Positions 3 to 24,974 of a stretch of 59,164 bases of DNA are shown here, in pieces. The stretch spans positions 5,341 through 64,504 of the forward strand of contig MFCV01000048.1 in NCBI GenBank assembly GCA_001777015.1. The letters run 5' to 3'. The stretch is from Candidatus Daviesbacteria bacterium RIFCSPHIGHO2_02_FULL_36_13. Lineage in GTDB: Bacteria; Patescibacteriota; Microgenomatia; Daviesbacterales; UBA10151. Position numbers and translations under genes: made by a program. Numbering within the stretch: position 1 is the first letter of the stretch; every line of letters begins with the position of its first letter. The notes below the pieces were generated by a model, which was not told the origin of the DNA, ran no database searches, and worked only from the letters and a program-made list of their open reading frames with translations.

Positions 3-506
3 TTTAAAAAAATTGTTGACAGCGGATATAAAAACTGGGAGTTACATTTTATTGGCAGCGTTGCAGAAGGTGAGACTCACCAGCAGTATTACGAGAAAGT
101 GGCGGAGGAATCTGTAGGGTACCCGGTTTTTTTTCATATTAATGCCCCCTTCAATCAATTAAAAAGTATTCTTTCGCAGGCTAAAATTTATTGGCATGCC
201 ACAGGATTGGACGAAGATCCCAATAGAAATCCAATCCGGTTAGAACATTTTGGCATTACAACAATTGAAGCCATGGCCTCTGGTTGTGTTCCTGTTGTAA
301 TAAATGCAGGGGGACAGACAGAAATTGTAACGGAGAAATCAGGTTATCTGTGGAACACAAGAGGGGAGCTTATTGAATATACAAAAAAATTAATGAGAAC
401 CCCTAAATTACTGAAGGAAAAAAGAGAAGGCGCAATCGAAAGAAGTAAATTTTTCAGTAAGGAAAATTTTAAAAAGAAATTACAAGAATATTTACCTAAA
501 AATTAA
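3..506 (+). CDS. GT4-family (GT-B fold) glycosyltransferase, C-terminal fragment; 5' end lies upstream of the window
   Basis: Frame is open from base 3 (FKKIVDSGYKNWELHFIGS) into the listed ORF. EAMASGCVPVVINAGGQTEIV is the GT4 EX7E-type region. Confidence 0.8.
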   Translation, partial: FKKIVDSGYKNWELHFIGSVAEGETHQQYYEKVAEESVGYPVFFHINAPFNQLKSILSQAKIYWHATGLDEDPNRNPIRLEHFGITTIEAMASGCVPVVINAGGQTEIVTEKSGYLWNTRGELIEYTKKLMRTPKLLKEKREGAIERSKFFSKENFKKKLQEYLPKN

Positions 507-2221
507 AAAGGTTTCCTTATATAAAACAAATCTTCATTAATTTTTTCTACTCCGTTTTTTATTGAAAATTCATTAATAAAATCAATTATGAAAGGTTTAA
601 GCTCCTTGATAAAGTAATACCTGTTAAATTTAACATAATCCACATTTCTGCTTATTAATTCTTCCAAAAACTCTTCAGTTTGCTGGTTTTCAATGTATTT
701 ACTAAGAGTAGCAGATAAAGCAAAATTTTCAGGGAGGTCGTATCCGCTATATCCGTTTACCAGATAGCAGCCATGTTGTATAGATGAAAATTCCATTACA
801 GTCAGATACCTTAACCCTTCATAAATGTTCGGATAAGCATCCAAGTGGGTTAACGGGAGTTCCAGCAGAACTTTTTTTTCTTTAGAGCAATTTTCCTGCA
901 GGATTTGATAATTATCCTCCTTATAGTGATATTGTTCACTTTTTACGGAAATAGGTAAATATTCCAATATAAAAATAATGAATATCGAAATAAAAATTAA
1001 TTTGTAGGATTTTTTGTTACTCAACTTGTTTAAAGTTATCAGTGAAAAGTAAATAAACCCTAAAAAGAATAGAAAACTCCACCTGACAGGGACTCTAACT
1101 GCCTCCGCCCCGGGTATAAAATTAACAACCGCGTTGTAGGGGAGAGGAATATGGGCATAATTACCATTAAAGTTAAGTCTGGGCCCCAAAGAAAATACAA
1201 GTCCTGTTATTAACAAAATCAGAAAAAAGGATTTTTCCCGATTAAGCTCCAAATTTATAGTCAACAAATGCTTGCTTCTTGTAATTTTGAATATTGTATA
1301 TATCCCCAATACAAAAATTAAGAAGCCGGGAAATGAACTGTGCGATCTCTGGTTCTTATCAAATCCGTTCCAGTACTGCATTAGGGGAGATTGATGCAAT
1401 GTTGATTTGATAGATTTAGTAAATACGTAGTCAGTTAGATGAGCAGAGTAATTAATATACTCTTCGATGTTGCGTTTTATATTGTAAGCAGCTCTCATAT
1501 CAGAATATCCCTTAATAAAAATCCCGCAACTTACTGCGAAAATCAGGAAAATTAAAGAAATACGCTTAAAAATCTCTTTATTCTGTTTTTGAAAAATCCA
1601 TTTTAAAAAATAAAAGGCTATAATTGAAAATATTAAATAGACGGCTATATAGACACTGGCCAAAAACTGAACAGTGAGAAGTAATCCGATAAGGATAAGA
1701 TTTTTCATTTGGAATTTCTCTTCCTGTTTAAAAAGGAAGTAGAAGGCAAAGAAAAATGGCCAGTATGACATCATTTGAAAATGTGATAATTCCATAAAGA
1801 AGAAAGGAGAGAAGATAACGAATAAAGATCCAAAAAAGGCAATCAAATCCTTTTTAAAAATTTGTTTCCAGAATAAAAATAATGAAATATAGTTAAGAAT
1901 AAAAGTAAAAATAAATGTTAAATTAAAACTTAATATTAGGTTTTTTGAAACAGTTAGAAATGAGAGTAGAATCAGAGCCTGAGGAAGTAATAAGTCACTA
2001 AACAGAAGTGTCATTTTATGAGGATAAAAAGCATTTGTTTCAAAAAAATTTGCAAAATCTAAATTTTGGATATGATTAATACTTTGAGACATAACCCATA
2101 TTACATAAGGATAATCCAGCCAATCTATAAGATTTGTAGAAATATTTAGGATTAGATTTCTAAAAACAAAGAGTAAAATTAAAATGAAAAGACTTAGATA
2201 GAGAAGGAATTTTTTATCCAT
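503..2221 (-). CDS. Large polytopic membrane protein with GT-C-like architecture (putative polyprenyl-phosphate-sugar dependent glycosyltransferase)
   Basis: 572 aa. Many hydrophobic helices fill the first ~3/4, followed by a soluble C-terminal domain. Acidic first-loop segment LIDWLDYPY. Sits 2 nt downstream of the GT2 gene on the same strand. Family not assignable by eye. Confidence 0.5.
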   Translation of the reverse strand: MDKKFLLYLSLFILILLFVFRNLILNISTNLIDWLDYPYVIWVMSQSINHIQNLDFANFFETNAFYPHKMTLLFSDLLLPQALILLSFLTVSKNLILSFNLTFIFTFILNYISLFLFWKQIFKKDLIAFFGSLFVIFSPFFFMELSHFQMMSYWPFFFAFYFLFKQEEKFQMKNLILIGLLLTVQFLASVYIAVYLIFSIIAFYFLKWIFQKQNKEIFKRISLIFLIFAVSCGIFIKGYSDMRAAYNIKRNIEEYINYSAHLTDYVFTKSIKSTLHQSPLMQYWNGFDKNQRSHSSFPGFLIFVLGIYTIFKITRSKHLLTINLELNREKSFFLILLITGLVFSLGPRLNFNGNYAHIPLPYNAVVNFIPGAEAVRVPVRWSFLFFLGFIYFSLITLNKLSNKKSYKLIFISIFIIFILEYLPISVKSEQYHYKEDNYQILQENCSKEKKVLLELPLTHLDAYPNIYEGLRYLTVMEFSSIQHGCYLVNGYSGYDLPENFALSATLSKYIENQQTEEFLEELISRNVDYVKFNRYYFIKELKPFIIDFINEFSIKNGVEKINEDLFYIRKPF

Positions 2222-2223
2222 GG

Positions 2224-2946
2224 TTACCCTCTGAGTAAGTTATACTTAATAATTTCCCACAAAGCTTTAACGCCATCTCTCCATCCAATCTTTTTGCCCT
2301 CACTATATGTTCTTCCCGAATAGGAGATGCCAACTTCGTAAATTTTTAATTCTTTAATCTTAGCAATTCTGGCAGTTACTTCAGGTTCGAACCCAAATCT
2401 ATGGCTCTCCAGTTTATTTGCAATTTTTCTTATTAATTCTCCTTTAAAAGCTTTAAAGCCTGTTTCCATATCAGTTAGATTTAGATTTGTCAGCATATTG
2501 GATAAAACAGTAAGAAAAAGATTAATTTGATAATGCCAAAAGTATAAAACCCTGTGTGGTCTATTGGATATAAATCGGGAACCATAAACCACATCTGCAG
2601 CATTTTTTAGAAAGGGCTCAAGCATTATTGGGTAGTCATCAGGGTTATATTCCAAATCTGCATCTTGAACTAATACAATATCCCCTGTAGATTTGCTAAA
2701 CCCATCTTTTAACGCTGCGCCTTTTCCCTGATTTTTATTTTTAAAGATGGTGCTGATTTTAACTGAGCCTGTATATTTAGTTATAAAATCTTTAATTCTC
2801 TCAGGAGTTTTATCTGTAGAACCATCATCCACAATAATTATTTCCTTTTCAAGTTTCATGCTGTTTGCAGAGGAAATAACAGTTAAAGCTTGTTGTATGA
2901 ATTGCTCTTCGTTATATACGGGAATTACGATTGATAGTTTTTTCAC
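2224..2946 (-). CDS. GT2 glycosyltransferase, Ppm1/DPM1/GtrB-like polyprenyl-phosphate hexose synthase
   Basis: N-terminus KLSIVIPVYNEE, DDGSTDKT, QDADLEYNPDDY (DXD region), GSRF, RFGFEPE. 240 aa and soluble. Start codon is GTG (plus-strand cac at 2944-2946). Confidence 0.75.
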   Translation of the reverse strand: MKKLSIVIPVYNEEQFIQQALTVISSANSMKLEKEIIIVDDGSTDKTPERIKDFITKYTGSVKISTIFKNKNQGKGAALKDGFSKSTGDIVLVQDADLEYNPDDYPIMLEPFLKNAADVVYGSRFISNRPHRVLYFWHYQINLFLTVLSNMLTNLNLTDMETGFKAFKGELIRKIANKLESHRFGFEPEVTARIAKIKELKIYEVGISYSGRTYSEGKKIGWRDGVKALWEIIKYNLLRG

Positions 2947-2989
2947 TCCTTAATATTAAATTATGGGTAATGAATGGTCAATGGTGAGG

Positions 2990-2998
2990 TGGTATTAT
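2990..2998 (+). promoter_or_regulatory. Extended -10 promoter element TGgTATTAT, 6 nt upstream of ATG 3005 (leaderless-type arrangement)
   Basis: Read directly: tggtattat-tagaat-ATG. No Shine-Dalgarno sequence is possible in the gap. Confidence 0.5.
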
Positions 2999-3004
2999 TA
3001 GAAT

Positions 3005-4684
3005 ATGGTAAATGAACAAAGTTCTTCTATGAATAAAATATTTTCTTGGTTAATGAGTCATAAGGAGGTAGTAGTGCTTTTGGGATGTACAGTCCTTTTC
3101 CTACTGCTTATCTTTAAAGATCCGTTTTCGGAGAGAACTTTAATACCAAACTTTGAGCCGTATCCGGATACTCTATTTTACATAGTAAAACCATTAAATT
3201 TTCTAAAGGGTGAAGGCTTTAATTTTAGCAGAGAAGGGAGACTTGCCTACAATTTGACTCCACCTTTGTACTCTATAGCATTAATTCCTTTTTTTGCAAT
3301 AAATCCTGATCCCAGAATGGCATATTTTGCAAACATTTTTCTATCTTTAATTTCGGTAGGACTTTTTTTCTTAATTGTGAAAAAGATCACAAACAATATA
3401 TGGCTAACATGCTTAGTACTATTTTTGTACATTACCAACTACTTTTTGTATTTCATGCCAACTCTAGTAATGGCGGAAAATTTAATTCTTCCCTTATATT
3501 TAACGGCAGTATTTCTTTTAATAAGAAATAATACTCCCGCTTTTTTTATCCTCTTGGGAGTCCTTAGTGTTTGTATATATGCAACCAAGGGGGCTAATGT
3601 TCCTATTTCTGCAATGATTTTGATTTTATCAGCTATCAAAATAGTTATATCGCAATCTAAAAATACTCTCAAGATAAAATCCTTTTCGTATTTACTAGTT
3701 GGTTTTTCTGTATCCTTTATCCTTTATTCATTATTTTTTTATTACGTAACTAATTCCAATATTCTGGGGCCTCTATTGGAATATTTTGGACTAGCAAAGG
3801 AGGCAATAACTCCTAAGGCGGATGAAATTACAGCTGCTGCTTCTGCAGGTGGATGGATATCATTTAGTTATGCTAGTAAAAATTTTCCTTTATATTTAAG
3901 CTCTCTTCTTGGGGATTCCCAAAGATTTCTTTGGGACAACACCCCACTTGTTCCTAAGTATATCGCTTTCCTATCCCTGGCAGGACTTATCTTGGGGGTA
4001 ATTACAAAAAGATTCCGATTTTTAAGCGTTTCTTTAATTCTTATGATTGTAAGTTCTATCGGATTTTTACTTACCTTTTATGCTTTTGATGCAAGATATA
4101 TTTATATCGCTATACCGTCACTTTTAATTGGTTTTTCTATTCTTATCGCTTCCTTGTTTAATTTATTTAAGGCAGTAAAATACAAGAGGATTATTTTCTT
4201 AATGATTATATTATTTTTTGGTTTTTATGTTTTTAACAATGCTTTAAGAATTAAAAATCAAATTAGTCTAAATTTAAAATACGCTGAAACTCCATGGTAC
4301 TATATTTCTGTTTTAAAGCTTAATGAATACTTTACAGATGATAAAGTTATAGATGGAAAAAAACCCGTTGTGATTTCAGCTCTACCTCCTTTTTTGGTAG
4401 ATTTTTACTCTAATGGTAACTATACTTTACTACCGCTTTCGTACGAACAAGAGTTTAGAAGCGCAAAAGAAATAACATGGGGGCCTAATGATTATACGGA
4501 TCTGCCGAAATTGTATACAAAATATATAAAAGAAGGTTATGACGTTTATGTATCAAGGTATGGTTTAGGAAACGAGGTATATACAAATAGGGATTTTGAA
4601 ATCATCATGAAGGAATTTCAGTTAGATTTAGTTTGGCCAGGATGCTATGAACAATGTAATATATACACAGTTGGATTAAAATAA
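3005..4684 (+). CDS. Polytopic membrane protein with GT-C-like architecture
   Basis: 559 aa. Multi-helix N-terminal ~430 aa and a soluble C-terminal ~130 aa. Lies in the glycan locus. An alternative start at ATG 3029 (MNKIFSW) is possible. Confidence 0.5.
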   Translation: MVNEQSSSMNKIFSWLMSHKEVVVLLGCTVLFLLLIFKDPFSERTLIPNFEPYPDTLFYIVKPLNFLKGEGFNFSREGRLAYNLTPPLYSIALIPFFAINPDPRMAYFANIFLSLISVGLFFLIVKKITNNIWLTCLVLFLYITNYFLYFMPTLVMAENLILPLYLTAVFLLIRNNTPAFFILLGVLSVCIYATKGANVPISAMILILSAIKIVISQSKNTLKIKSFSYLLVGFSVSFILYSLFFYYVTNSNILGPLLEYFGLAKEAITPKADEITAAASAGGWISFSYASKNFPLYLSSLLGDSQRFLWDNTPLVPKYIAFLSLAGLILGVITKRFRFLSVSLILMIVSSIGFLLTFYAFDARYIYIAIPSLLIGFSILIASLFNLFKAVKYKRIIFLMIILFFGFYVFNNALRIKNQISLNLKYAETPWYYISVLKLNEYFTDDKVIDGKKPVVISALPPFLVDFYSNGNYTLLPLSYEQEFRSAKEITWGPNDYTDLPKLYTKYIKEGYDVYVSRYGLGNEVYTNRDFEIIMKEFQLDLVWPGCYEQCNIYTVGLK

Positions 4685-4696
4685 TATGATAAACAT

Positions 4697-5728
4697 ATGA
4701 GTGAACAAAGTTCTTTTGCAAATAAAATTTTAATTACTGGTGCGGGGGGGTACATAGGTTCCATAGCAACATCTGTGTTGCTTGACGAAGGATTTGAAAT
4801 TGTGGCGGTTGATAATTTCTCTACTGGTTACAGACAGCCTTTAGAAATTCTACAGAAAAAATATGGTGAAGAGAAACTGCGTTTTTATGATATAGATTTA
4901 ACAAAAGACGATATCTCGTCTATTTTTGATAAAGAGCAGGGGATAGATGCAGTAATTCACTATGCTGCACATTGTTTGGTAGATGAATCGATGAAGAATC
5001 CGCATAAGCATTTTTATAACAATATTTGCGGTACTTTAAATTTAATATCCTCAATGAATAAAGCTGGAGTTAAAAATCTAGTATTTTCCTCAACTTGTGC
5101 AGTTTATGGTCAATCAAAGTATATACCTATAGATGAAGATCATCCAAAGGAGCCACTGAGCCCTTATGGAGAATCGAAAAAAATATCTGAAGATATAATT
5201 ACTTGGTTCTCTAAACTAAAAGGATTAAATTTTGTCATTCTAAGATATTTTAATGTTTGTGGGGCATCTGATGATGGATTAATTGGTGATGCTAAAAAAC
5301 CGTCCCCTCATTTAGTTCAAAACACAGTAAGAGGAGCCTTGGGTATAGAACCATTCATCCTTACCTATCCGGAAGTTGATACAGAAGATAAAAGTCCAAT
5401 AAGGGATTATATTAATGTGGTCGATTTAAATTTAGCCCATAAAAAAGCAGTGGAGTATTTATTAAACGGGGGAGAAAGCGAGTTTATAAATTTAGGAACA
5501 GGCAAAGGAAATTCGGTATTAGAAATAATCAATATTGTCAAAAAAGTAACAGGAGTAGAATTTGAGGTATCAAGGGGAAATTTAAGGGAGGGGGATCCTG
5601 CTAGACTGGTGGCTTCAATAGAAAAAGCTAAAAGAATTCTGGATTGGGAACCAAAAAGAACAATAGAGGATTCTATTAATAGTTTAATTTCCTGGTACAA
5701 AAATAATCCCCAGGGTTGGAAGAAGTAA
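4697..5728 (+). CDS. galE: UDP-glucose 4-epimerase
   Basis: ILITGAGGYIGS Rossmann motif, SSTCAVYG, catalytic YGESK, 343 aa. Has an unusual ~8-aa N-terminal extension, MSEQSSFA. Confidence 0.9.
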   Translation: MSEQSSFANKILITGAGGYIGSIATSVLLDEGFEIVAVDNFSTGYRQPLEILQKKYGEEKLRFYDIDLTKDDISSIFDKEQGIDAVIHYAAHCLVDESMKNPHKHFYNNICGTLNLISSMNKAGVKNLVFSSTCAVYGQSKYIPIDEDHPKEPLSPYGESKKISEDIITWFSKLKGLNFVILRYFNVCGASDDGLIGDAKKPSPHLVQNTVRGALGIEPFILTYPEVDTEDKSPIRDYINVVDLNLAHKKAVEYLLNGGESEFINLGTGKGNSVLEIINIVKKVTGVEFEVSRGNLREGDPARLVASIEKAKRILDWEPKRTIEDSINSLISWYKNNPQGWKK

Positions 5729-6768
5729 TGAAGTTTGTTTTTTCCGTCTTTCTAATTTGGCGTCTGCTTCTATTTATAAGTACAGGTGAGTTTTCGCTTT
5801 CGTCTTGGGCTAATTTTGATGGTATTCATTATCTATCCATAGCTGCCAATGGCTATACCTTTGATGGAAGATTTCTACCCTTATACCCTTATTTAATAAA
5901 GATTTTTTCGACCCCCTTTAATTTTCCGGATATGTATCTTTACTCAGGTTTGTTTGTATCAAATATTTCTTTCCTGCTGTCTTTAATGCTTTTTTATAAA
6001 TTAGTAAAGGAGGATTATTCAGAAAAAGTAGCAAAAGAGTCATTAATTTGGATGTTAATTTTTCCTACTTCATTTTTCTTTGTCAGTGTATATTCGGAAA
6101 GCTTATTTTTGTTTCTAACCTTACTATCTTTCTACTTTGCTCAAAAAAGTAAATGGGTATTTGCATCTATTGCAGGGTTTTTCTTAGGTATAACAAGACT
6201 CACCGGAATGTTTATACTACCTTCATTAATTTATGAATTTCTTAAAAAAGAAAAATCTAATCCTCTTAAAATTTTTCCTCTATTTTTAATTCCGGCAGGA
6301 TTAATTTCTTTTGCGGTATTTTGTTTTTATAAATGGGGAGATGCACTTTACTTTATTAAAGCCCACGGCGATTTAGGCAATTCACGATCGGTAGATTCAG
6401 TGGTTTTTCCATTACAGACAGTATATCGGTATAGTAAAATACTATTTACAGTGCCTCCCGGTCAATTTGAGTATTGGATAGCTCTTTTAGAACTTAGTGT
6501 TTTTATAGCTGTTTCCTTTCTTATATATTTAGGATGGAAGAAGAAACTGAATCCCAGCTGGCTTATTTTTTCTTTGCTAACCTTTTTGCTGCCATCTTTT
6601 TCAGGAACTTTTTCTGGTTTGCCCAGATATGTAATTACAATTTTTCCAATTTTTATTGTTTTAGCATTGATTAAAAACCGTTTGTTTAAAATATCTTATG
6701 GGCTTATTTCACCTGTTTTACTACTTCTATTATTGGTACTTTTCTCAAGAGGTTATTTTGTTGCATAG
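5728..6768 (+). CDS. PIG-V/mannosyltransferase-like polytopic membrane protein (GT-C type)
   Basis: Motif WANFDGIHYLSIAANGY near the N-terminus; all-helical membrane protein. Start placed at the ATG overlapping the galE stop (TAATG); the track start, TTG 5716, is in frame. Paralog at 52191-53225. Confidence 0.65.
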   Translation: MKFVFSVFLIWRLLLFISTGEFSLSSWANFDGIHYLSIAANGYTFDGRFLPLYPYLIKIFSTPFNFPDMYLYSGLFVSNISFLLSLMLFYKLVKEDYSEKVAKESLIWMLIFPTSFFFVSVYSESLFLFLTLLSFYFAQKSKWVFASIAGFFLGITRLTGMFILPSLIYEFLKKEKSNPLKIFPLFLIPAGLISFAVFCFYKWGDALYFIKAHGDLGNSRSVDSVVFPLQTVYRYSKILFTVPPGQFEYWIALLELSVFIAVSFLIYLGWKKKLNPSWLIFSLLTFLLPSFSGTFSGLPRYVITIFPIFIVLALIKNRLFKISYGLISPVLLLLLLVLFSRGYFVA

Positions 6769-6777: not shown

Positions 6778-8193
6778 ATGATTTTATTCGTTTTGTTTTT
6801 AGCCTTTGTTTTGAGATTTATTAATCTGGATCAAAGTTTATGGTTTGATGAAGCCATCAATGTGGTATATGCAAAGTCTAATGATTTTTGGTGGTTTGTA
6901 ACAAAGTATCCAATTGGTGATTTTCATCCTCCCTTATATTTTGCAGTTATCTGGCTCTGGGGACACATATTTTCTTTTGGAGAATTTGTTATTAGAATAC
7001 CTTCGGTATTATTTGGTATTGCAACTATATTTCTGACCTATTTAATAGGTAGAAAATTATTCTCAAAAAATATAGGATTAATTGCTGCGTTATTTTTATC
7101 TCTAGCTCCTTTGCATATTTATTATTCACAAGAAGCCAGGATGTATTCATTAGCTGCATTTTCAGCAGCTTTCTCAAGCTATTTTCTTTTAAAATTATTA
7201 GAAAAGGAAAAGTTTGCCCTTTTTGGATATTCTTTCTCTGTAGCTTTAGTTTTATATTCAGATTATCTTTCCTACCTTATTCTTCCTGCACATTTACTGT
7301 TTGTTTTTATTTATTACAAAAGTATATTCAATAAATATCTTTTGTCATTGTTTCTTGGGGTTTGTTCTATTATTCCTTGGCTGTTTGTTTTTCCAGGCCA
7401 GCTTAAAAGTGGAATTGAAAAATCCGCTATGATAGGCGGCTGGAGAGAGGTGGTAGGAGGATTGGGTGTTAAAGAGGTATTATTACTCCCAGTTAAAATT
7501 CTAATTGGTAGGATAACTTTTGAGAATAAATTAATATATGCAATCTTATTATTCCTAATATCCTTGCCGCATATAATTGGTTTTAAGAAAATACTAAGCT
7601 TTTTGAGTGAGAAAGTGAACTATCTTTTGTTATGGTTATTTATACCTGTAATTTCAGCACTGATACTTTCTTTGTTTATGCCAGTTTTTAGTTATTTTAG
7701 ATTACTTTTTATTCTCCCGGCGTTTTATATTCTTTTGGCTTTTGCTTTAGATAAATATAAACATAAGATAAAACTAATATTAATTACCTTAATAATATTT
7801 TTTGAAATTATTACTTCGGGTGTATATCTTCTAAATTCTCAGTTTCACCGTGAAGATTGGAGATCTGCTGTAAGTTTGATAAATAATAGAAGTAATATAC
7901 AAACACTTGTCTTACACAAAAATAGCGAGATACCAGCCCCATTTAAATACTACCAATTAAATTCCATTCAAAGTATAGCTGTTTTTAAGAAGATTCCGGT
8001 ACATTCCTCAAGTGATTTCGTTAATTTGGAGGAAACTTTAATGCAATTTAATAAAATTTTTATCTTTAATTATTTAGTGGATATTACAGACCCAAACAGA
8101 GTTTTAGAAAAAGAAATAGAAAGACTTGGATTCAAAAAGATTAAAGATTATGATTTTAGAGGAGTAGGATTTATTTATGAATTTGAAAAGTAG
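6778..8193 (+). CDS. GT39/ArnT/PMT-like membrane glycosyltransferase (GT-C)
   Basis: First-loop motif LWFDEAINVVYA, YSQEARMY, many TM helices, 471 aa. Confidence 0.65.
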   Translation: MILFVLFLAFVLRFINLDQSLWFDEAINVVYAKSNDFWWFVTKYPIGDFHPPLYFAVIWLWGHIFSFGEFVIRIPSVLFGIATIFLTYLIGRKLFSKNIGLIAALFLSLAPLHIYYSQEARMYSLAAFSAAFSSYFLLKLLEKEKFALFGYSFSVALVLYSDYLSYLILPAHLLFVFIYYKSIFNKYLLSLFLGVCSIIPWLFVFPGQLKSGIEKSAMIGGWREVVGGLGVKEVLLLPVKILIGRITFENKLIYAILLFLISLPHIIGFKKILSFLSEKVNYLLLWLFIPVISALILSLFMPVFSYFRLLFILPAFYILLAFALDKYKHKIKLILITLIIFFEIITSGVYLLNSQFHREDWRSAVSLINNRSNIQTLVLHKNSEIPAPFKYYQLNSIQSIAVFKKIPVHSSSDFVNLEETLMQFNKIFIFNYLVDITDPNRVLEKEIERLGFKKIKDYDFRGVGFIYEFEK

Positions 8194-13061: not shown

Positions 13062-13065
13062 TTTA

Positions 13066-17742: not shown

Positions 17743-19184
17743 GTATTTTAAGAAAATTCTTTTTATTAGGATTAATTATACTTCTAGCTTTTGTGCTTAG
17801 GCTTTGGAAGATTGATAGTCCAATTGCTGATTGGCATTCATGGAGACAGGCAGATACAGCAGCTGTTACCAGAAATTTCATAAAACACGGGTTTAATCCA
17901 TTTTTGCCTAAATTTGACGATATGTCTGCAATTTCAGAATTTCCGGTAGCTAATCCTTTAGGATTTCGCTTTGTAGAATTTCCTGTTTATAATATTTTTG
18001 TTTATCCTTTCTATTTATTTTTTGGTATTGAAGATATGTATCACAGGTTAGTTTCAGTATTTTTCTCTTTGGGGTCAACCGCTGTTTTATACTTTTTAGT
18101 TAAAAAATACTGGGATCAGACAACGGCTTTTTTGTCAGCTCTCACTTTTGCAATCCTTCCATATAATGTATTCTTTTCAAGAACAACTCTTCCTGAACCG
18201 ACCTTTGTATTTTTTTCTTTAAGTATGATGTTTTTTTCATCTGAATGGATAGAAAAAAATACAAAAATAAATCTTATATTGGCTTTTGTATTTACCTCGA
18301 TTGCCTTTTTAATAAAACCCTGGGCGATATTTTTCTATTTACCGCTTTTATATTTAAGTTTAAAGAAAAAAGCCCTAAAAAGATTTTTAATATTTTCATG
18401 TTTAGCATTTTTACCTTTTATATTTTGGCGGCTTTGGATATTGCAGCAGCCTGAGGGTATACCAGCATCATCCTGGCTATTAAACAGCGATGGGATCCGT
18501 TTCCGTCCTGCATTTTGGTGGTGGATTGTTTCCGAAAGAATGGGTAGGGAAATTTTAGGTGCCACAGGGTTGGTTTTATTTACTTTGGGGCTAATTTTAA
18601 AACCGAAAAATGGAAACTATTTTTTTCATTTTTGGGCCCTTTCCATTTTCTTGTATTTTGCAATTTTTGCAACAGGAAACGTCAGGCATGATTATTATCA
18701 GGTGTTATTTGTGCCTGTAGCAGCAGTTTTGCTCTCAGCAGGTTTTTTAAAACTTACACGGGGAGAAAATAATTTTGTCCCCAGAATATTTACAATTTCT
18801 CTGGCCCTAATTTTATATACACTTTCAATTTACTTTGGATATAAAGAAGTTAAAGGCCTTTATCAAATTAATAATCCTGTAATTGTAGAAGCCGGAAAGA
18901 AAGCAGATGAGATTTTACCAAAGGACGCTATAGTTTTGGCTCCCTATAATGGAGACAGCGCATTTTTATATCAGACCAATAGAAAAGGTTTTCCATTTGT
19001 ACCAACCTCCATAAAGGATTTAATTGCCGATTTTGGAGTAAGTTATTATATATCACCGAATTATGACGATAAGACCAATTGGGTCTTAAGGCATTTTTAT
19101 GCAATTGAAGAAAATCCTAAATTTGTTATTGTCGACTTAACAAAAGTAAAAAAAGATTTTAACGATAAAGATTTGGAGCCATAA
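17739..19184 (+). CDS. GT39/ArnT-like membrane glycosyltransferase (GT-C)
   Basis: WHSWRQADTAAVTRNF first-loop motif, multiple TM helices, soluble C-terminal ~110 aa. Confidence 0.65.
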   Translation: MSILRKFFLLGLIILLAFVLRLWKIDSPIADWHSWRQADTAAVTRNFIKHGFNPFLPKFDDMSAISEFPVANPLGFRFVEFPVYNIFVYPFYLFFGIEDMYHRLVSVFFSLGSTAVLYFLVKKYWDQTTAFLSALTFAILPYNVFFSRTTLPEPTFVFFSLSMMFFSSEWIEKNTKINLILAFVFTSIAFLIKPWAIFFYLPLLYLSLKKKALKRFLIFSCLAFLPFIFWRLWILQQPEGIPASSWLLNSDGIRFRPAFWWWIVSERMGREILGATGLVLFTLGLILKPKNGNYFFHFWALSIFLYFAIFATGNVRHDYYQVLFVPVAAVLLSAGFLKLTRGENNFVPRIFTISLALILYTLSIYFGYKEVKGLYQINNPVIVEAGKKADEILPKDAIVLAPYNGDSAFLYQTNRKGFPFVPTSIKDLIADFGVSYYISPNYDDKTNWVLRHFYAIEENPKFVIVDLTKVKKDFNDKDLEP

Positions 19185-20377
19185 TGAAGGTATTAATGTT
19201 AACTCCGTATTTACCGTATCCTTTGCTGACTGGCGGACAAACCAGATCATATAATTTAATCAAACGTTTGTCTTCTTTGGGTCATGAAATTACACTTTTT
19301 TGTTTAGTGAAAAACGATGCAGAAAGAAAATATGTTGGAGAACTAGAAAAATATTGTAAACAAGTAAGTGTTTTTAATAGATCAGAAAAACCTTGGACGG
19401 TTAAAAATATCTTGAAAACAGGATTGTCCTTCTACCCATTTCTAGTTGTTAGAAATTGGGCAAAAGGAGAGAGAAAAGTAATTGAAACAAAACTGAAAGA
19501 AGAAAAATTTGATCTTATTCATGCTGAAACTTTTTATGTTATGCCGCATATCCCCAAAACCAATATACCGATTCTTTTGGTTGAACAGACAATAGAATAT
19601 TTAGTTTATAAACACTTTGCCGATTCTTTTAAAATCCCTTTTTTAAAACACATGTTGTATTTGGATATCGCAAAGATGAAATATTGGGAGCTTAAATATT
19701 GGAGGCAAGCTAAAAAAGTAGTTGCTATGTCAGATGATGATAGAGAATCAATGCTTTTTCAAATTGCCAGTTTAGATTGCGATATTGTTCCTAATGGAGT
19801 AGATAGTTCCTACTTTGGTCAAAAAATTGCAGAAAAATCCAAAATTCCAACTATATTGTATCTTGGTAATTTTACCTGGCTTCAAAATAAAGAAGCAGTA
19901 GGTATTTTGTATGAAAAAATATGGCCTTTGATAAAGGAGAAAATAAAAAACGCTAGACTTTGGATAATAGGAAAAGATGCGAAAGAATTTTTTCCTAAAT
20001 TGGAATCAGAGGATGTAAGAGTTGAGGAAGTTAAGGACGTAAGAGAGGTTTACCAAAAAGCTTCAATTTTAGTTGCACCGATATATGGCGGGGGGGGAAC
20101 ACGCTATAAAAATTTTGAAGCTTTTGCTTCAGGATTGCCTGTTATAACAACCTCTATTGGTATAAGAGGAACAGATGCAAAAGATGGGGAAGATGTGTTA
20201 ATAAAAAATACTCCAAAAGAGATTGCAGATGCAGTATTGCAGCTACTGAAAGATAGAAAGCTTTACTCGCAAATCGCTGATAACGCCAAAAAAATGGTAA
20301 AGGAAAAATATGATTGGGATCCAATAGCTAAAAAGTTAAGCAGAATCTATGAAGATCTAGGAGGGGAGAAAGTCTAA
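19184..20377 (+). CDS. GT4-family glycosyltransferase
   Basis: MKVLMLTPYLPYPLLTGGQTR N-terminus; GGGTRYKNFEAFASGLPVITTSIG C-terminal region. Confidence 0.8.
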   Translation: MKVLMLTPYLPYPLLTGGQTRSYNLIKRLSSLGHEITLFCLVKNDAERKYVGELEKYCKQVSVFNRSEKPWTVKNILKTGLSFYPFLVVRNWAKGERKVIETKLKEEKFDLIHAETFYVMPHIPKTNIPILLVEQTIEYLVYKHFADSFKIPFLKHMLYLDIAKMKYWELKYWRQAKKVVAMSDDDRESMLFQIASLDCDIVPNGVDSSYFGQKIAEKSKIPTILYLGNFTWLQNKEAVGILYEKIWPLIKEKIKNARLWIIGKDAKEFFPKLESEDVRVEEVKDVREVYQKASILVAPIYGGGGTRYKNFEAFASGLPVITTSIGIRGTDAKDGEDVLIKNTPKEIADAVLQLLKDRKLYSQIADNAKKMVKEKYDWDPIAKKLSRIYEDLGGEKV

Positions 20378-20390
20378 ACGACTTTCGAGT

Positions 20391-21485
20391 ATGAGAATCG
20401 GCATTGATGGGCGATTTTTGAATGAGTCAGGGGTAGGTAGATATATAAGAAATCTAATTTCAAATCTTAAGGACTTGGATAAGCAAAATCAGTATTTTAT
20501 TTTTTTACTGAAAGAAGATTATGAGAAATTTACAGAAACAAAAAATTTTAAAAAAGTCTTGGCAGATTTTAAGTGGTATGGATTTATTGAACAAGTTAAG
20601 TTTCCCAGCCTTTTAAAAAAATACAATTTAGATTTAGTTCATTTCCCTCATTTTAATTTCCCTATTTTTTATAAGAATAACTTTATTGTAACTATTCATG
20701 ATCTAATACATCAGCATTTTAATATGGAGCATTCTACAACTCATGGTCCTCTTATTTATAAACTAAAAACCTTGGGATATAGAACAGTTTTTAAGCATGC
20801 AGTAAATAAATCATCTCAAATATTAGTTCCCTCAGAATATGTTAGAAAACAATTAATAAATGACTGGAAAATAAATAGTCAAAAAATTACAGTTACAGCA
20901 GAGGGAGTAGAAGATAGCTTACTAGCTAAAGGTGGAGAATTGCCAGATGGTGTTAGGAAACCTTATATTTTTTTTGTAGGAAATGCTCACCCCCATAAAA
21001 ATGTAGAAGGGCTTATTAAAGCTTTCTTGATCTTAAGAAAAAAATATCAATATTTGCAGTTAGTACTAGCAGGGAAAGATAGTTATTTCTGGAGGAAGTT
21101 ACTTGAGAAATACCAACACAGTGATATTCTGTATACGGGTTTTGTTCCTGATAAAAAATTAGTCACTCTTTACAAAGAAGCTGATGTTTATGTAGAACCA
21201 TCTTTTGAGGAAGGATTTGGAATACCAATATTAGAAGCTATGGCTTTAGGAACTGCAGTTGTTTCATCAAGGTTAGGCAGTTTGCCGGAAGTAGGGGGAG
21301 ATGCGGTTTTATATTTTAATCCAAATGATTCAGACGATATGGTTAATAAAATTTCACAGGTCTTAAATTCAAAGAAGTTAAGAAAAGAATTAATTGAAAA
21401 TGGTAAGAAAAGAGTTAAACTTTTCAGTTGGAAAAAAATGGCTGAACAAACATTGGAGGTATATGCGAGTAGCAATCGTTCATGA
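20391..21485 (+). CDS. GT4-family glycosyltransferase
   Basis: EEGFGIPILEAMALGTAVVSSRLGSLPEVGGDA. Confidence 0.85.
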   Translation: MRIGIDGRFLNESGVGRYIRNLISNLKDLDKQNQYFIFLLKEDYEKFTETKNFKKVLADFKWYGFIEQVKFPSLLKKYNLDLVHFPHFNFPIFYKNNFIVTIHDLIHQHFNMEHSTTHGPLIYKLKTLGYRTVFKHAVNKSSQILVPSEYVRKQLINDWKINSQKITVTAEGVEDSLLAKGGELPDGVRKPYIFFVGNAHPHKNVEGLIKAFLILRKKYQYLQLVLAGKDSYFWRKLLEKYQHSDILYTGFVPDKKLVTLYKEADVYVEPSFEEGFGIPILEAMALGTAVVSSRLGSLPEVGGDAVLYFNPNDSDDMVNKISQVLNSKKLRKELIENGKKRVKLFSWKKMAEQTLEVYASSNRS

Positions 21486-22479
21486 TGATTTAGTCCAGTG
21501 GGGAGGAGCAGAGAGAGTTTTGGAGGGGCTTTGTGAAATTTATCCAGACGCCCCAATTTATACTTCTGTTTTTGATAAATCCAATAAAGAATTAAATAAG
21601 AGGTTTGGAAAGAAAAAAATTATCACTTCTTTCTTGCAAAAAATTCCATGGTGGAGATCTTTGTATAAACCACTTTTTTTCCTATACCCAATAGCTTTTG
21701 AGCAATTCAATTTTGACGAATATGATTTAGTTATATCTAACACCACTCGTTTTGCAAAATGTATTATCACCAAACCTAAGACTGTGCATATTTGCTACTG
21801 TCATACACCCCCCAGGTTTTTGTGGCATTTTTCCGATTCAGAAAACTTTGGAATAGGTGAAATCTTTATGAATACACTTAAAAATTTTGATCAAATTTGG
21901 GCTAAGAGAGTAGATTTTTTTATTGCAGGATCCGAAAACGCCAAGACAAGGATTAAAAAAGTCTATAACGAAAACAGCAAGGTTTTGTATCCATTCGTTG
22001 ATCTAAAAAGATTTGAAAATGTTGAAACTTTTGATGGAGAATATTTTGTATTAGCTGGGAGACCTAGTAAATATAAAAGATTTGATTTAGCTGTGGAAAC
22101 CTGCAGGCAGATTGGAGTGGATTTAAGGATTATTGATGGAAATTTATCTGAAGAGATGGTTGTTTTAGTACTATCCGGGTGTAAGGCGCTTATAATCCCA
22201 GGGGTTGAGGATTTCGGTATAGTTTCTCTTGAGGCACAGGCTTTAGGAAAGCCAGTTATTGCATTTAAAGAAGGGGGAAGCCTGGAAACAATAATAGATA
22301 GTAAAACAGGAGTATTTTTTGAAAAACAAAGTATCGAGTCTTTGAAAGAAGCTATGCATAAATTGAATTCTATAAAAATTGATCTACAGAATTGTAAAAA
22401 TAATGCAAAACGTTTTAGTAAGAATAATTTTATAAGTGACTTTAGGCAAATTGTTGCATCTTTGTTGTACACTAAGTAA
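21463..22479 (+). CDS. GT4-family glycosyltransferase
   Basis: Start moved to ATG 21463, preceded by GGAGGT, giving MRVAIVHDDLVQWGGAERV. EDFGIVSLEAQALGKPVIAFKEGGSLETI. Confidence 0.8.
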   Translation: MRVAIVHDDLVQWGGAERVLEGLCEIYPDAPIYTSVFDKSNKELNKRFGKKKIITSFLQKIPWWRSLYKPLFFLYPIAFEQFNFDEYDLVISNTTRFAKCIITKPKTVHICYCHTPPRFLWHFSDSENFGIGEIFMNTLKNFDQIWAKRVDFFIAGSENAKTRIKKVYNENSKVLYPFVDLKRFENVETFDGEYFVLAGRPSKYKRFDLAVETCRQIGVDLRIIDGNLSEEMVVLVLSGCKALIIPGVEDFGIVSLEAQALGKPVIAFKEGGSLETIIDSKTGVFFEKQSIESLKEAMHKLNSIKIDLQNCKNNAKRFSKNNFISDFRQIVASLLYTK

Positions 22480-23111
22480 TGGCTATGTATGATTTCCTAA
22501 AAAGGATTGTGGATATTATTGGTTCGACTCTAGGGTTAATAATTTTGTCCCCAATATTAATTATTGTTGCGATTGCTATAAAGTTGGATTCCGAGGGACC
22601 GGTGCTAGCTGATACTCCAATGCGGGCCGGTAAAGACGGAAAGCTCTTTAGAATTTATAAATTCAGGTCTATGGTTAAAGATGCACACGAAATCTTAGGA
22701 AAAAATCCAAAACTTTTGGAAGAATATAAAAAAAATAGCTATAAAATATTTGATGATCCAAGAATAACTAGATTTGGTAAATATTTACGCAGATTTTCTT
22801 TGGATGAACTGCCTCAATTTCTAAATATTTTAAAAGGGGATATGAGTTTAGTGGGGCCAAGGGCATATTATCCTTATGAATTGGAGGAGCAGCAAAAGGC
22901 ATATCCTACCTCTCGCAAATTTGTTAAGATTATTTTATCAGGTAAACCTGGAGTTACGGGGCTTTGGCAGGTGTCCGGTAGATCTGAGATTAATTTTGAA
23001 AAAAGAGTTAAGATGGATGCAGAGTATATCAAGAAAAAATCACTTTTTTATGATTTTCTGATTATGCTGAAGACTATCCCAGCTGTTATTTCTGGAAGAG
23101 GAGCTGTTTAG
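22479..23111 (+). CDS. Initiating phosphoglycosyl transferase (bacterial sugar transferase, PglC/WbaP C-terminal type)
   Basis: Single re-entrant helix, then KFRSM, DELPQFLNILKGDMSLVGPR and PGVTGLWQVSGRS motifs. Confidence 0.9.
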   Translation: MAMYDFLKRIVDIIGSTLGLIILSPILIIVAIAIKLDSEGPVLADTPMRAGKDGKLFRIYKFRSMVKDAHEILGKNPKLLEEYKKNSYKIFDDPRITRFGKYLRRFSLDELPQFLNILKGDMSLVGPRAYYPYELEEQQKAYPTSRKFVKIILSGKPGVTGLWQVSGRSEINFEKRVKMDAEYIKKKSLFYDFLIMLKTIPAVISGRGAV

Positions 23112-24974
23112 ATGAATTCAATAAAATTTGGCTATTCAAGAAAATTACCTACAAATAAAAACAGAAGGAGAGTATTGGTTGTTTTAGGGATTTTGCTGAT
23201 AGCTTTATTAATTCCTTCAATTTTTGCATTTCTTGGACTAAGCTCTGCTGCCAGTCATAGTAAAGGGATTGTGGCCGCTTATAAGGCTCAGAATTTTGAT
23301 CAGCTTCAGAATGAAGTAAAAGCTACAAAAGGGGCTTTGCAGCAGGCAAATATATCTTTAGGATTTCTTTTTTGGCTTAGGATAGTACCATTTTTAGGAG
23401 GATATTATGGGGATGCTAAAGGATTTGTGGGCGCTGGAGCAGAAGATTTAACTGCTGTTGAAACTCTTCTGAAGAATATGTCCTCCGACTCTCAGGAGCT
23501 TGGGTTTGATGGTCACCCCAAAAGTGGACCTGATAGAGTAACTCAGGTTGTTAAAATTTTAGATAAATCCTTTCCCCATTTAGATAAGGTTGAGAAAAAT
23601 TTCAAAAAAGCAGCTGATCAGGTGAAGAATATTGATGTTAATAAATATCCTGAAAAGATAGCAGGTAAAGATTTAAAAGCAAATTTGGAAGTGGCCAAGA
23701 ACTTTATCATAGGTGCGTCTGTTGCTGTTTCTGAAGGCAGAGATGCTTTAAGGTTGGCCCCACAGGCTTTAGGTATACCATCTTCAAAAAACTATTTTAT
23801 GCTTTTTCAAAATGATAAAGAAATACGGCCAACAGGAGGATTCTTAACAGCTTTTGCAACGCTTTCTATAAATAATGGTCAGGTAGATACTACAACTTCT
23901 GATGATATATACAGATTGGATGAAAGATTGCTTGCAACTTGCAGATCTAAAATTTGTCCTTTATCTCCTCCGGCTCCTTTAGTTAAATACCTGCCTGAAG
24001 TTACAGGTAAGCCTCGTTCTGCCTGGAGCATGAGAGATTCTAATCTTTCTCCAGATGTACCAACTTCTGCAAAAGAATTTGAAAGAATATATCAGATGTT
24101 GGGCGCAGGTTTTCCTTTTGATGGAATTATGTTTATTGATTCACAAGTTGTGGAGGAGTTGATTGAGGTGACAGGTCCTATAGAGGTTTATGGAACTAGC
24201 TATACTTCGGAAATAGATAAAAGGTGTAATTGCCCGAATGTTATTTATGAGTTAGAAAATTATGCTGAAGTTATTGAAAAAGGGGAGCAGGACAGAAAAG
24301 CAATTTTAGGAGTTTTAATGCAGCAGATTTTAGCAAGGTCTATTGGAGCTGATGTTGAAAAACTGCCTCAACTTATTGAAACAATAGCAAGATTGGCCAA
24401 TCATAAGCATGTAATTTTCTATATGAAAGATACTGGTTTGCAAAATGCATTGTCTAAATTGAATTGGACAGGGGAGGTAAAATCATATGATGGAGATTAT
24501 CTACATATCAATGATGCTAATTTTGCAGGAGGCAAATCCAACCTATATGTTGAACAAACAGTAACTCAGGATATCAGTATAAAAAATAACAAAGTCACTA
24601 AAAAAATCACAATAGAATATAAAAATCCTCAAGGATTTAACATTTGGCTTAATGGTATAAACAGAGATTTTGTAAGGCTTTATGTTCCTCAGGGTAGTAA
24701 ATTAATTCAAGGCAAAGGTTCAGAGGATGGAGTAAGGCAGACAGAAGATGAGTTGGGAAAAAGTGTCATTGAGGCCTTTATTACTGTCAGACCTCAAAAT
24801 AGCAGGAAGCTTGAAGTAGAATATGAATCTCCATATAATCCAAAAGATGATTATAAACTTATGATTCAGAAACAGCCTGGTGCAAAAGATCATCATTACA
24901 AGATTAAAATTAATGGTTCGGGGAAAGCTGATTTTAAATTGGATATGGACAAAGAATTTAAATTCGACATCTAA
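23112..24974 (+). CDS. DUF4012-like membrane-anchored extracytoplasmic protein
   Basis: N-terminal TM. The MLFQNDKEIRPTGGF motif matches my recollection of the DUF4012 QNNAE-R-TGG signature. 620 aa. Confidence 0.6.
   Translation: MNSIKFGYSRKLPTNKNRRRVLVVLGILLIALLIPSIFAFLGLSSAASHSKGIVAAYKAQNFDQLQNEVKATKGALQQANISLGFLFWLRIVPFLGGYYGDAKGFVGAGAEDLTAVETLLKNMSSDSQELGFDGHPKSGPDRVTQVVKILDKSFPHLDKVEKNFKKAADQVKNIDVNKYPEKIAGKDLKANLEVAKNFIIGASVAVSEGRDALRLAPQALGIPSSKNYFMLFQNDKEIRPTGGFLTAFATLSINNGQVDTTTSDDIYRLDERLLATCRSKICPLSPPAPLVKYLPEVTGKPRSAWSMRDSNLSPDVPTSAKEFERIYQMLGAGFPFDGIMFIDSQVVEELIEVTGPIEVYGTSYTSEIDKRCNCPNVIYELENYAEVIEKGEQDRKAILGVLMQQILARSIGADVEKLPQLIETIARLANHKHVIFYMKDTGLQNALSKLNWTGEVKSYDGDYLHINDANFAGGKSNLYVEQTVTQDISIKNNKVTKKITIEYKNPQGFNIWLNGINRDFVRLYVPQGSKLIQGKGSEDGVRQTEDELGKSVIEAFITVRPQNSRKLEVEYESPYNPKDDYKLMIQKQPGAKDHHYKIKINGSGKADFKLDMDKEFKFDI

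Follow-up and report, generated by a model that had tools for sequence, protein, structure and literature searches.

In the three-component systems of Shigella phages (GtrA/GtrB/GtrC), of Bacillus and Listeria (CsbB/GtcA/YfhO) and of streptococci (SccN/GtrB), a cytoplasmic family 2 glycosyltransferase (GT2) makes an undecaprenyl-phosphate-linked hexose (Und-P-hexose), and a glycosyltransferase of the GT-C class transfers the sugar outside the membrane. Here we describe a locus of similar logic at 503-24974 of a 59,164-nucleotide stretch of contig MFCV01000048.1 (this whole stretch is called the window below) from Candidatus Daviesbacteria bacterium RIFCSPHIGHO2_02_FULL_36_13, a groundwater bacterium of the Microgenomates (Candidate Phyla Radiation, CPR). 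Compared with the three-component systems, it has seven GT-C enzymes instead of one, a GT2 without a membrane anchor and no gene for a GtrA-type flippase, and none of its GT-C enzymes matches YfhO or GtrC. We read it, with a probability of about 0.6, as a conserved two-compartment locus for the assembly of an envelope glycan, centred on a polysaccharide.

The left part of the locus (503-5728) resembles the Pgf operon of Streptococcus mutans, in which a GT2 synthase, two GT-C enzymes and a GalE-type epimerase also stand together (PMC12041528). However, the GT2 falls far below the PgfS equivalog cut-off, the GT-C enzymes belong to DUF6311 and to a family without any model instead of YfhO, the epimerase is absent from most relatives' loci and the whole unit forms part of a far larger locus. 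On a larger scale, the locus recalls the synthesis of mycobacterial arabinogalactan, lipomannan and lipoarabinomannan (LM/LAM; Ppm1, PimE, MptA-C, EmbA-C, AftA-D), where the cytoplasm provides a lipid-linked primer and most of the glycan is added outside the membrane by many GT-C enzymes, which a polyprenyl-phosphate-sugar synthase supplies. The likeness to Emb/Aft lies at the level of the fold only (AftA, AftB, AftD and Emb are among the Foldseek matches), for Pfam and NCBIfam place no protein here in an Emb, Aft or Mpt family and the primer would instead be handled by a WbaP-type phosphoglycosyl transferase (PGT) and a Wzy_C protein.

These last two components, with several family 4 glycosyltransferases (GT4), an O-acetyltransferase and a variable tailoring flank, are shared with Wzx/Wzy heteropolysaccharide loci (O-antigen, capsule, exopolysaccharide), but the block has no Wzx, Wzz/PCP or Wza and carries seven GT-C enzymes, a DUF3863 membrane fusion and a DUF4012 protein instead. 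Finally, archaeal Agl N-glycosylation (AglJ, AglS, AglB, Agl23) uses the same pairing of lipid-phosphate-hexose and GT-C, and AglJ is the best NCBIfam match of the GT2; yet scores are far below the cut-offs and WWDxG occurs in no GT-C enzyme here. In its logic, the locus amounts to a Wzy-type pathway onto which a greatly enlarged three-component (GtrB/GT-C) system has been grafted. Every enzyme class in it is known; the combination is uncharacterised and unusually GT-C-dense, and two of its GT-C families have practically no annotation. Full-text searches aimed at it, on glycosyltransferases in CPR, Patescibacteria, Microgenomates or Daviesbacteria and on DUF4012, yielded no description of it; the one relevant passage is in PMC6744442 (see below).

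An earlier note on this DNA, made from the letters alone, had drawn attention to the locus as a possibly undescribed glycosylation system, and on that point the full-text searches agree with it. The note also set the locus apart from standard O-antigen and capsule clusters. This stands for the unusually large extracytoplasmic GT-C part, but not for the locus as a whole, which is a hybrid with a conventional part made of PGT, GT4 enzymes, acetyltransferase and Wzy_C. Its preference for mycobacterial or eukaryotic precedents did not survive as a statement about pathways: no GT-C enzyme belongs to an Emb/Aft or oligosaccharyltransferase (OST) family, by Pfam and by the absence of WWDxG. The two comparisons are therefore analogies of logic, not pathway homology.

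Composition of the locus

Twenty complete open reading frames (ORFs) fill 503-24974, with the coordinates that the earlier note had listed, and a partial gene at 99-506 adds to these. Their products are as follows (TM, transmembrane segment).

99-506, + strand: 3' part of a GT4 gene of 513 aa that the window edge truncates (Pfam Glycos_transf_1, 44.6 bits)
503-2221, - strand: DUF6311-family GT-C with a C-terminal extracytoplasmic alpha/beta domain (AlphaFold2 (AF2) model and Foldseek; PF19830 in homologues)
2224-2946, - strand: soluble GT2 of polyprenyl-phosphate-hexose synthase type (DPM1/ArnC/GtrB-like; Pfam Glycos_transf_2, 121.8 bits)
2946 to 503, - strand: two-gene unit formed by the GT2 and the DUF6311 GT-C, starting from a 58-bp spacer
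3005-4684, + strand: GT-C of a family without Pfam or NCBIfam model (AF2 model and Foldseek)
4697-5728, + strand: UDP-glucose 4-epimerase GalE (TIGR01179, 331.4 bits against a cut-off of 262.3)
5728-6768 (ORF also given from 5716), + strand: PIG-V-like GT-C, paralogue of 52191-53225
6778-8193, + strand: PMT_2 GT-C (ArnT/PMT-like) with a D24-E25 motif (PF13231, 63.0 bits)
8177-9694, + strand: PMT_2 GT-C (PF13231, 27.7 bits; D38 conserved)
9673-11247, + strand: PMT_2-like GT-C, paralogue of 8177-9694 (PF13231, 25.4 bits; D41 and D45 conserved)
11247-13061, + strand: signal-anchored DUF3863-like extracytoplasmic domain with a C-terminal six-TM domain, called DUF3863-TM here (TM 4-22 and 385-597)
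13066-14079 and 14076-15155, + strand: two GT4 (Pfam Glycos_transf_1, Glyco_transf_4)
15180-15782, + strand: WcaF-like hexapeptide O-acetyltransferase of the left-handed beta-helix (LbH) type (Hexapep, 56.5 bits)
15782-16327, + strand: conserved small double-anchored protein (TM 1-19 and 158-176)
16324-17742, + strand: Wzy_C-family protein, that is a polymerase, ligase or O-oligosaccharyltransferase (PF04932, 34.6 bits against a cut-off of 31.7)
17739-19184, + strand: PMT_2 GT-C (PF13231, 45.5 bits; D31 and D39 conserved)
19184-20377, 20391-21485 and about 21394-22479, + strand: three GT4 (Pfam)
22479-23111, + strand: small initiating polyprenyl-phosphate hexose-1-phosphate transferase, the PGT (PF02397 Bac_transf, 207.4 bits)
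23112-24974, + strand: DUF4012 protein with an N-terminal TM anchor and a large extracytoplasmic domain (PF13196, 84.5 bits; one TM segment)

On the + strand, intergenic gaps from 3005 to 25597 are all of 24 bp or less and genes overlap at eleven junctions, which fits co-expression. Consensus promoter and terminator scans did no better than shuffled controls (77 vs 90 and 17 vs 13, respectively) and are thus uninformative, so that we take the operon structure from gene spacing. In the 58-bp divergent spacer between the GT2 and the GT-C at 3005-4684, a promoter-like match ends at 3004, i.e. at the annotated ATG of the latter gene; a second in-frame ATG lies at 3029 and may be its true start.

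Seven GT-C glycosyltransferases

All seven polytopic proteins that had been proposed to be GT-C glycosyltransferases are members of this class, four through PMT_2, one through paralogy to a PIG-V protein and two through structure models and Foldseek. A crude hydropathy scan gives them 7-11 transmembrane segments, and neither profile nor structure searches identify any of them as a transporter or another non-glycosyltransferase.

For five of the seven, the assignment comes from Pfam profiles or paralogy. The gathering threshold of PMT_2 (PF13231; CAZy GT39/GT83 region) is 26.1 bits, which 9673-11247 misses by 0.7 bits; this protein is tied to 8177-9694 by phmmer (1.6e-16). In 6778-8193, W22, D24 and E25 are at least 90% conserved among 16 orthologues. 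The PMT_2 proteins also produce weak NCBIfam matches to Agl23 and archaeal STT3 models. The protein encoded at 5728-6768 has no Pfam match of its own; it is 34% identical (phmmer 1e-40) to that of 52191-53225, which matches PIG-V/Mannosyl_trans2 (PF04188) with 38.7 bits against a cut-off of 22.4, and its first-loop motif W-x-x-x-D-G-x-H-Y is kept in 12 orthologues, with D35 conserved.

The other two, 503-2221 and 3005-4684, gave nothing with Pfam (PMT_2 included), nor with the PDB when searched by sequence and by family profile, and no consistent Pfam match exists in the 29 members of the 3005-4684 family. When both families were compared with the strongest PMT_2 protein, hhalign returned a probability of about 1%, and only 63% when they were compared with each other. 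None of these sequence and profile comparisons is significant; the structure models alone settled the fold. Both AF2 models consist of 11-13 helices followed by a soluble alpha/beta domain (hydropathy predicts 10 transmembrane segments in 503-2221), with a pLDDT of 88.6 and a pTM of 0.90 for 503-2221 and of 82.8 and 0.82 for 3005-4684. Fold similarity was computed for these two proteins, and in each case the first 29 Foldseek matches in the PDB are GT-C enzymes only. For 503-2221 the best E-value is 4.6e-5, TM-scores reach 0.52 and the structural neighbours include DPY19, STT3, AglB, PglB, AftD and ArnT. For 3005-4684, STT3 is matched with an E-value of 3.5e-7, ArnT with TM-scores of 0.55-0.57 and the highest TM-score is 0.58. 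OST, AftA/B/D, EmbA-C, ALG9/12, Pmt and GPI-MT-I also appear among the neighbours of the pair, and TM-scores across the GT-C matches of both models range from 0.4 to 0.58. At 50% identity, 1.84 billion representatives contain 686 clusters of the 3005-4684 family, a small number.

Two other identities for these proteins can be set aside. Non-GT-C Foldseek matches, such as major facilitator superfamily transporters or G-protein-coupled receptors, have TM-scores below 0.15 and probabilities of at most 0.15. Despite STT3, AglB and PglB as top structural neighbours, the oligosaccharyltransferase motif W[WY]DxG is missing from eight of eight GT-C proteins of the window.

A common feature emerges from the orthologue alignments, which map conserved acidic residues to the loop after the first transmembrane segment in 7/7 proteins, on a side presumed to be extracytoplasmic. 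In 503-2221, D36 is invariant and D33 at least 90% conserved; in 3005-4684, E51 and D55 are invariant. These enzymes probably use a lipid-phosphate-linked sugar donor, as the adjacent GT2 of DPM1/GtrB type indirectly supports.

One predicted donor synthase

The GT2 gene (2224-2946) sits 2 bp upstream of the DUF6311 GT-C gene (503-2221). To judge from its sequence matches, the enzyme is of the polyprenyl-phosphate-sugar synthase type, as had been suspected: its best PDB match is the Pyrococcus dolichol-phosphate-mannose synthase 5MLZ (4.8e-21, residues 3-221), followed by ArnC (7.6e-16) and GtrB (1.6e-12). The top NCBIfam matches are AglJ (92 bits), PgfS (76.6 bits against a cut-off of 500) and ArnC, all far below the equivalog cut-offs. 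Hydropathy predicts no transmembrane segment in this 240-aa protein, unlike GtrB, ArnC and the Pyrococcus synthase, which have C-terminal transmembrane helices. Soluble polyprenyl-phosphate-sugar synthases that lean on a membrane partner exist, namely human DPM1 and Ppm1 of Mycobacterium smegmatis. GalE occupies the matching position in only some of the relatives' loci (L014, L028).

The conventional part and its companions

GalE, the acetyltransferase, the Wzy-like protein, the PGT and the DUF4012 protein are all confirmed by Pfam or NCBIfam. The PGT has 210 aa, corresponding to the catalytic C-terminal domain of WbaP/WcaJ-type enzymes (TIGR03025, 252.8 bits over the C-terminal domain only). 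The acetyltransferase matches the WcaF family NF007797 with 97 bits, below the cut-off of 192. Of six GT4 enzymes counted by the earlier note, five are complete, and the sixth (99-506) is the tail of the 513-aa gene cut by the window edge, which is intact at 11716-13257 of an identical contig described below (L080). At 19184-20377, TIGR03087 is matched with 144.7 bits, under its cut-off; more generally, the GT4 proteins have sub-threshold NCBIfam matches to IagA/BgsA, GlcN-PG synthase and the MSMEG_0565 family.

The Wzy_C protein has 10 transmembrane segments and a large loop (274-390), and Arg, His and Asp residues are conserved in 16 orthologues. Its gene is always directly preceded by that of the small double-anchored protein, which is found in 10/13 core loci at an identity of at least 35%. 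Hydropathy places a transmembrane segment at each end of this protein, as anticipated, and Pfam and NCBIfam searches with it returned no family match. In DUF3863-TM, hydropathy delimits a soluble domain of about 350 residues between the signal anchor and the six transmembrane helices; 16/28 members of its family match PF12979 (DUF3863) weakly. Profile comparison of the C-terminal six-TM domain with the DUF6311 and model-less GT-C families gave no significant similarity. As for the DUF4012 protein, a PDB sequence search gave nothing useful. DUF4012 is reported to be enriched in CPR and Gram-positive bacteria and occurs in a Bifidobacterium exopolysaccharide cluster; many families enriched in Microgenomates are unannotated membrane proteins (PMC6744442).

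Conservation in relatives

For three of the locus proteins, homologues with an organism name belong to Candidatus Daviesbacteria, Shapirobacteria and further Microgenomates, and the 692 homologues of DUF3863-TM are from Microgenomates-type sources throughout. A scan of GTDB species representatives with this family yielded 79 loci; those with informative titles belong to Daviesbacteria, Levybacteria, Woesebacteria, Shapirobacteria, Amesbacteria, WWE3 and unclassified Patescibacteria. Many of the locus contigs (among them L003, L005-L007, L011 and L014; binchicken/SRP co-assembly metagenome-assembled genomes (MAGs)) are labelled "uncultured Gammaproteobacteria bacterium", which looks like a placeholder and is unfit for taxonomic inference.

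When all window proteins were compared with the 79 loci by tblastn, at least eight locus genes were found at an identity of at least 35% in 13 loci, and the GT4 pair at 13066-15155 in 13/13 of these core loci. In four Daviesbacteria loci (L001, L004, L011, L014) the order is the same throughout, with block identities of 45-76%: DUF6311 and GT2 on the minus strand, then the model-less GT-C, GalE in some, the PIG-V-like GT-C, three PMT_2, DUF3863-TM, two GT4, LbH, the small protein, Wzy_C, PMT_2, three GT4 and the PGT. Each GT-C pairs with its own orthologue in the same order (45-69% identity), which argues for seven non-redundant functions in one pathway. Thus, the synteny that the earlier note had suggested looking for in related MAGs exists, and it extends as a reduced core to Levybacteria (L008), Woesebacteria (L016) and L015: DUF3863-TM, one PMT_2, two GT4, LbH, the small protein, Wzy_C, PMT_2 and GT4, the small protein not being detected in the L008 core. 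In Shapirobacteria, the DUF3863-TM orthologue stands outside any glycan locus.

A two-compartment model and its rivals

From what is observed, namely the folds and families of the enzymes, the conserved first-loop acidic residues and the packing, order and conservation of the genes, we infer a donor, an order of steps and an acceptor, which may be a polysaccharide or a protein. On the cytoplasmic face, the small WbaP-type PGT would prime undecaprenyl phosphate, the GT4 enzymes would assemble an undecaprenyl-diphosphate (Und-PP)-linked oligosaccharide and the WcaF-like enzyme would O-acetylate it. In parallel, the DPM1/GtrB-type GT2 would put a hexose on undecaprenyl phosphate, presumably from the UDP-Glc/UDP-Gal pool, interconverted by GalE where it is present. 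Both lipid intermediates would then be flipped, by the Wzx at 48831 or by another protein. On the outer face, the Wzy_C protein would polymerise the oligosaccharide or ligate it to the final acceptor, and the seven GT-C enzymes, each at a different position, would add residues from the lipid-phosphate-sugar donor, extending or branching the glycan outside the membrane. DUF3863-TM is a candidate extracytoplasmic trimming or de-acetylating enzyme, and DUF4012 and the small double-anchored protein may be accessory factors. In this strain, CMP-hydroxyethylphosphonate from a Fom1-like pathway would be transferred to the glycan as a decoration by a TagF-like enzyme. PGT, GT4 enzymes, acetyltransferase and Wzy_C are standard parts of an Und-PP-oligosaccharide pathway and speak for this polysaccharide-centred scheme. 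A single donor synthase serving seven conserved, non-redundant GT-C enzymes further suggests that a substantial, branched, one-sugar portion is built outside the membrane.

Several points weigh against the scheme. The block contains no Wzx or GtrA-type flippase, the only MOP flippase of the window being 24 kb away, and no LCP ligase, Wzz or export component was found in the window. The reliance of seven GT-C enzymes on one lipid-phosphate-sugar synthase also counts on this side, and some GT-C enzymes may act on proteins or lipids instead. The polymerase, ligase and O-oligosaccharyltransferase roles of Wzy_C proteins are not separable from sequence, and PDB sequence searches with the protein at 16324-17742 returned nothing. 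Finally, the DUF3863 assignment is weak, with a best Pfam E-value among relatives of 5e-5, and the best PDB match of the family profile, the DUF3863 structure 3LM3, is non-significant (E 0.43). 3LM3 was reportedly deposited as a putative glycoside hydrolase/deacetylase, and we regard this function as no more than a lead; a glycoside hydrolase- or deacetylase-type activity is a candidate role for 11247-13061.

An alternative that we judge rather unlikely is general protein O-glycosylation, in which Wzy_C would act as a PglL/PilO-type O-oligosaccharyltransferase moving the Und-PP-oligosaccharide en bloc to pilins, S-layer or other surface proteins, and PMT_2 and other GT-C enzymes would decorate Ser/Thr-rich stretches of surface proteins with single hexoses taken from Und-P-hexose, much as in the actinobacterial Pmt, streptococcal GtrB/PgtC2 and PgfS/PgfM1 pathways. 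The Wzy_C domain is also found in PglL/PilO enzymes, four of the GT-C enzymes fall in a Pfam family named for protein O-mannosyltransferases and PgfS is the second-best NCBIfam match of the GT2. We do not rate this alternative lower because the divergent unit 503-5728 (GT2, GT-C, GT-C, epimerase) shares the parts list of S. mutans pgfS-pgfM1-pgfE-pgfM2 (PMC12041528). Pili and sortase substrates, moreover, abound in CPR bacteria (PMC6744442). However, Pfam matches no GT-C here to YfhO, the family of PgfM1 and PgtC2, or to PMT proper (PF02366), and a strongly Ser/Thr-rich acceptor gene is absent in or beside the locus; Ser/Thr/Pro-rich candidate acceptors were sought throughout the window and none near the locus is convincing. 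Moreover, the five or six GT4 enzymes, the acetyltransferase and the variable flank of methyltransferases and GT2 resemble a repeat-unit polysaccharide locus more.

The initiating PGT and Wzy_C, which point to an Und-PP-linked intermediate instead of a glycolipid primer, also argue against a membrane-anchored lipoglycan pathway like that of mycobacterial phosphatidylinositol mannosides (PIM), LM and LAM, where GT4 enzymes would glycosylate a membrane lipid on the inner face and, after flipping, GT-C enzymes would polymerise and branch a homoglycan from a single donor. This is an improbable reading, although the ratio of one donor synthase to many GT-C enzymes is like that of Ppm1 to PimE/MptA/MptB/MptC, the Foldseek matches include AftA, AftB, AftD and EmbA-C, and the sub-threshold NCBIfam matches of the GT4 proteins are to glycolipid-anchor synthases; those GT4 matches are generic and far under the family cut-offs, and the Emb/Aft Pfam families are unmatched. 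Could the locus be a glyco-island, where independent modules for polymer side-chain decoration, protein glycosylation and peptidoglycan or teichoic-type modification have gathered at one site? The left flank indeed varies (a phosphonate module here; methyltransferases, extra DUF6311 paralogues and an ABC2 permease elsewhere), GalE is in only some loci and the Shapirobacteria DUF3863-TM orthologue lies outside glycan loci. Yet from 3005-4684 through the GT4 genes the order is kept gene for gene across Daviesbacteria, in frames that overlap or nearly abut, which would be unusual for unrelated functions, and we consider such an assortment very improbable.

A wider reading, which we hold to be rather unlikely, is that the main envelope glycopolymer of Microgenomates is built largely outside the membrane by seven non-redundant GT-C enzymes from a single Und-P-hexose donor on a Wzy-handled primer, that it would represent a second, independently evolved line of the arabinogalactan/LAM style in genomes of about 1 Mb, phosphonate-capped in some strains, and that DUF6311 and the model-less family would be glycosyltransferase families not recognised before, with DUF3863-TM, DUF4012 and the small protein as new dedicated assembly factors.

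To our knowledge, almost nothing is known of the cell-envelope chemistry of CPR/Patescibacteria, whose cells presumably need contact between their surface and that of a host. We take the carrier of the locus to be a monoderm-like CPR bacterium with a genome of about 1 Mb, and complete contigs of relatives measure 1.0-1.1 Mb. With the left flank counted, the block covers at least 34 kb; that a genome of this size devotes about 3% of itself to a single conserved glycan locus points to a surface structure of importance. The locus offers a concrete and testable way into CPR envelope chemistry, of which there are few. Its targets are two GT-C families without usable annotation (a DUF, and a model-less family of about 700 clusters), a DUF3863-membrane fusion and the CPR-enriched DUF4012. 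The predicted product, a heteroglycan that would be O-acetylated, have a high content of one hexose and, in this strain, bear hydroxyethylphosphonate, could serve lectin or antibody capture, cultivation or visualisation of Microgenomates.

A phosphonate module in the left flank

The locus is not confined to 503-24974, the bounds first drawn for it. Contig ERZ27254754 k141_1181138 (L080) is identical to the window at 1-600 and extends at least 9.5 kb beyond its left end. The flank lies at 12222-21719 of L080, in reverse orientation on that contig, and all its genes read towards the window; from the far end they encode:

cytidylyltransferase-PEP-mutase (phosphoenolpyruvate mutase) fusion
thiamine diphosphate (TPP)-dependent decarboxylase
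Fe-alcohol dehydrogenase (Fe-ADH)
TagF-type Glyphos_transf protein (202 bits)
FkbM-type methyltransferase
two GT2
513-aa GT4

In the CTP_transf_like-PEP_mutase fusion, EDKIGAKRNS at residue 268 corresponds to the EDKxxxxxNS motif of PEP mutase (Ppm). This motif is a criterion for Ppm, fusions of Ppm with a nucleotidyltransferase are typical of cell-surface phosphonate tailoring and Fom1 is a precedent (PMC6697681). The TPP_enzyme_N/C and Fe-ADH genes adjoin the fusion gene on L080. If, as we assume, these two enzymes take the roles of Fom2 and FomC, the three together match Fom1/Fom2/FomC logic, and CMP-2-hydroxyethylphosphonate is the predicted product. The module therefore predicts, from its gene content, a surface glycan decorated with hydroxyethylphosphonate in a CPR bacterium. 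Some 5 kb separate the TagF-type gene, on the left, from window position 1, so that the absence of teichoic-acid genes claimed by the earlier note holds inside the window but not beyond its left edge.

The phosphonate module is missing from the corresponding flank of two relatives, where two or three tandem DUF6311 paralogues, methyltransferases, GT2, GT4 and the start of an ABC2 permease are found. The tandem DUF6311 GT-C paralogues, at L083 10001-13449 and L084 10001-15178, stand where the window has one, and the start of the ABC2_membrane permease is at the edge of L083. By analogy, a GT-C core that stays constant beside a tailoring flank that varies looks like the arrangement of serotype-determining loci.

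A second glycan module and other features

A second module, at 48.8-53.2 kb and outside the bounds first drawn for the locus, contains the following genes, with one further gene behind it.

48831-50138, + strand: Wzx-type flippase (Pfam Polysacc_synt, 116.1 bits)
50125-51099, + strand: GT2 (Glycos_transf_2, 95.3 bits)
51042-52190, - strand: Wzy_C (57.0 bits)
52191-53225, + strand: PIG-V GT-C, paralogue of 5728-6768 (Mannosyl_trans2, 38.7 bits)
53222-53944, - strand: membrane-anchored protein with a Glucodextran_B/Ig-like domain, following the module

This module may supply the flippase absent from the main locus. As the earlier note had stated, no Wzz, Wza or ABC gene lies in 503-24974, and Pfam, with no Polysacc_synt or MurJ match in that block, places the Wzx-type flippase here, at 48831-50138.

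The window has a GC content of about 33% and also contains the division and cell wall (dcw) cluster from mraZ to ftsZ and genes for a tRNA synthetase, ParB and PolX. Scans for tRNA genes, Rfam families and tandem repeats revealed nothing tied to the locus. The dcw/mur cluster is complete except that its only MurB-like ORF (33192-33830; FAD_binding_4 34 bits) is just 212 aa long and shares 56 bp with the Mur ligase ORF before it; a short MurB, a start-site problem or a frameshift may account for this. The packed + strand run passes 24974, with genes to 28502 separated by gaps of 45 bp or less:

24974-28502, + strand: putative cyclase (PF04199), RecO, class II aminoacyl-tRNA synthetase-like protein and an unannotated 298-aa membrane-anchored protein

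The first large gap to the right of the locus measures 259 bp and lies ahead of mraZ at 28762.

Relatives of DUF3863-TM also occur in other settings. In Candidatus Shapirobacteria (L029 9278-11677), its orthologue is 33 bp downstream of a gene for a GGDEF diguanylate cyclase, with a Crp-type regulator adjacent, neighbours that hint at c-di-GMP-linked control. A shorter paralogue, made of the soluble DUF3863-like domain only (residues ~30-337), is found at about 10001-10960 of each of L060, L063, L064, L066, L073 and L074. It is repeatedly flanked by a GT2, a PMT_2-like gene and another GT2; thus the DUF3863-like domain recurs beside GT2/GT-C pairs elsewhere in Daviesbacteria genomes.

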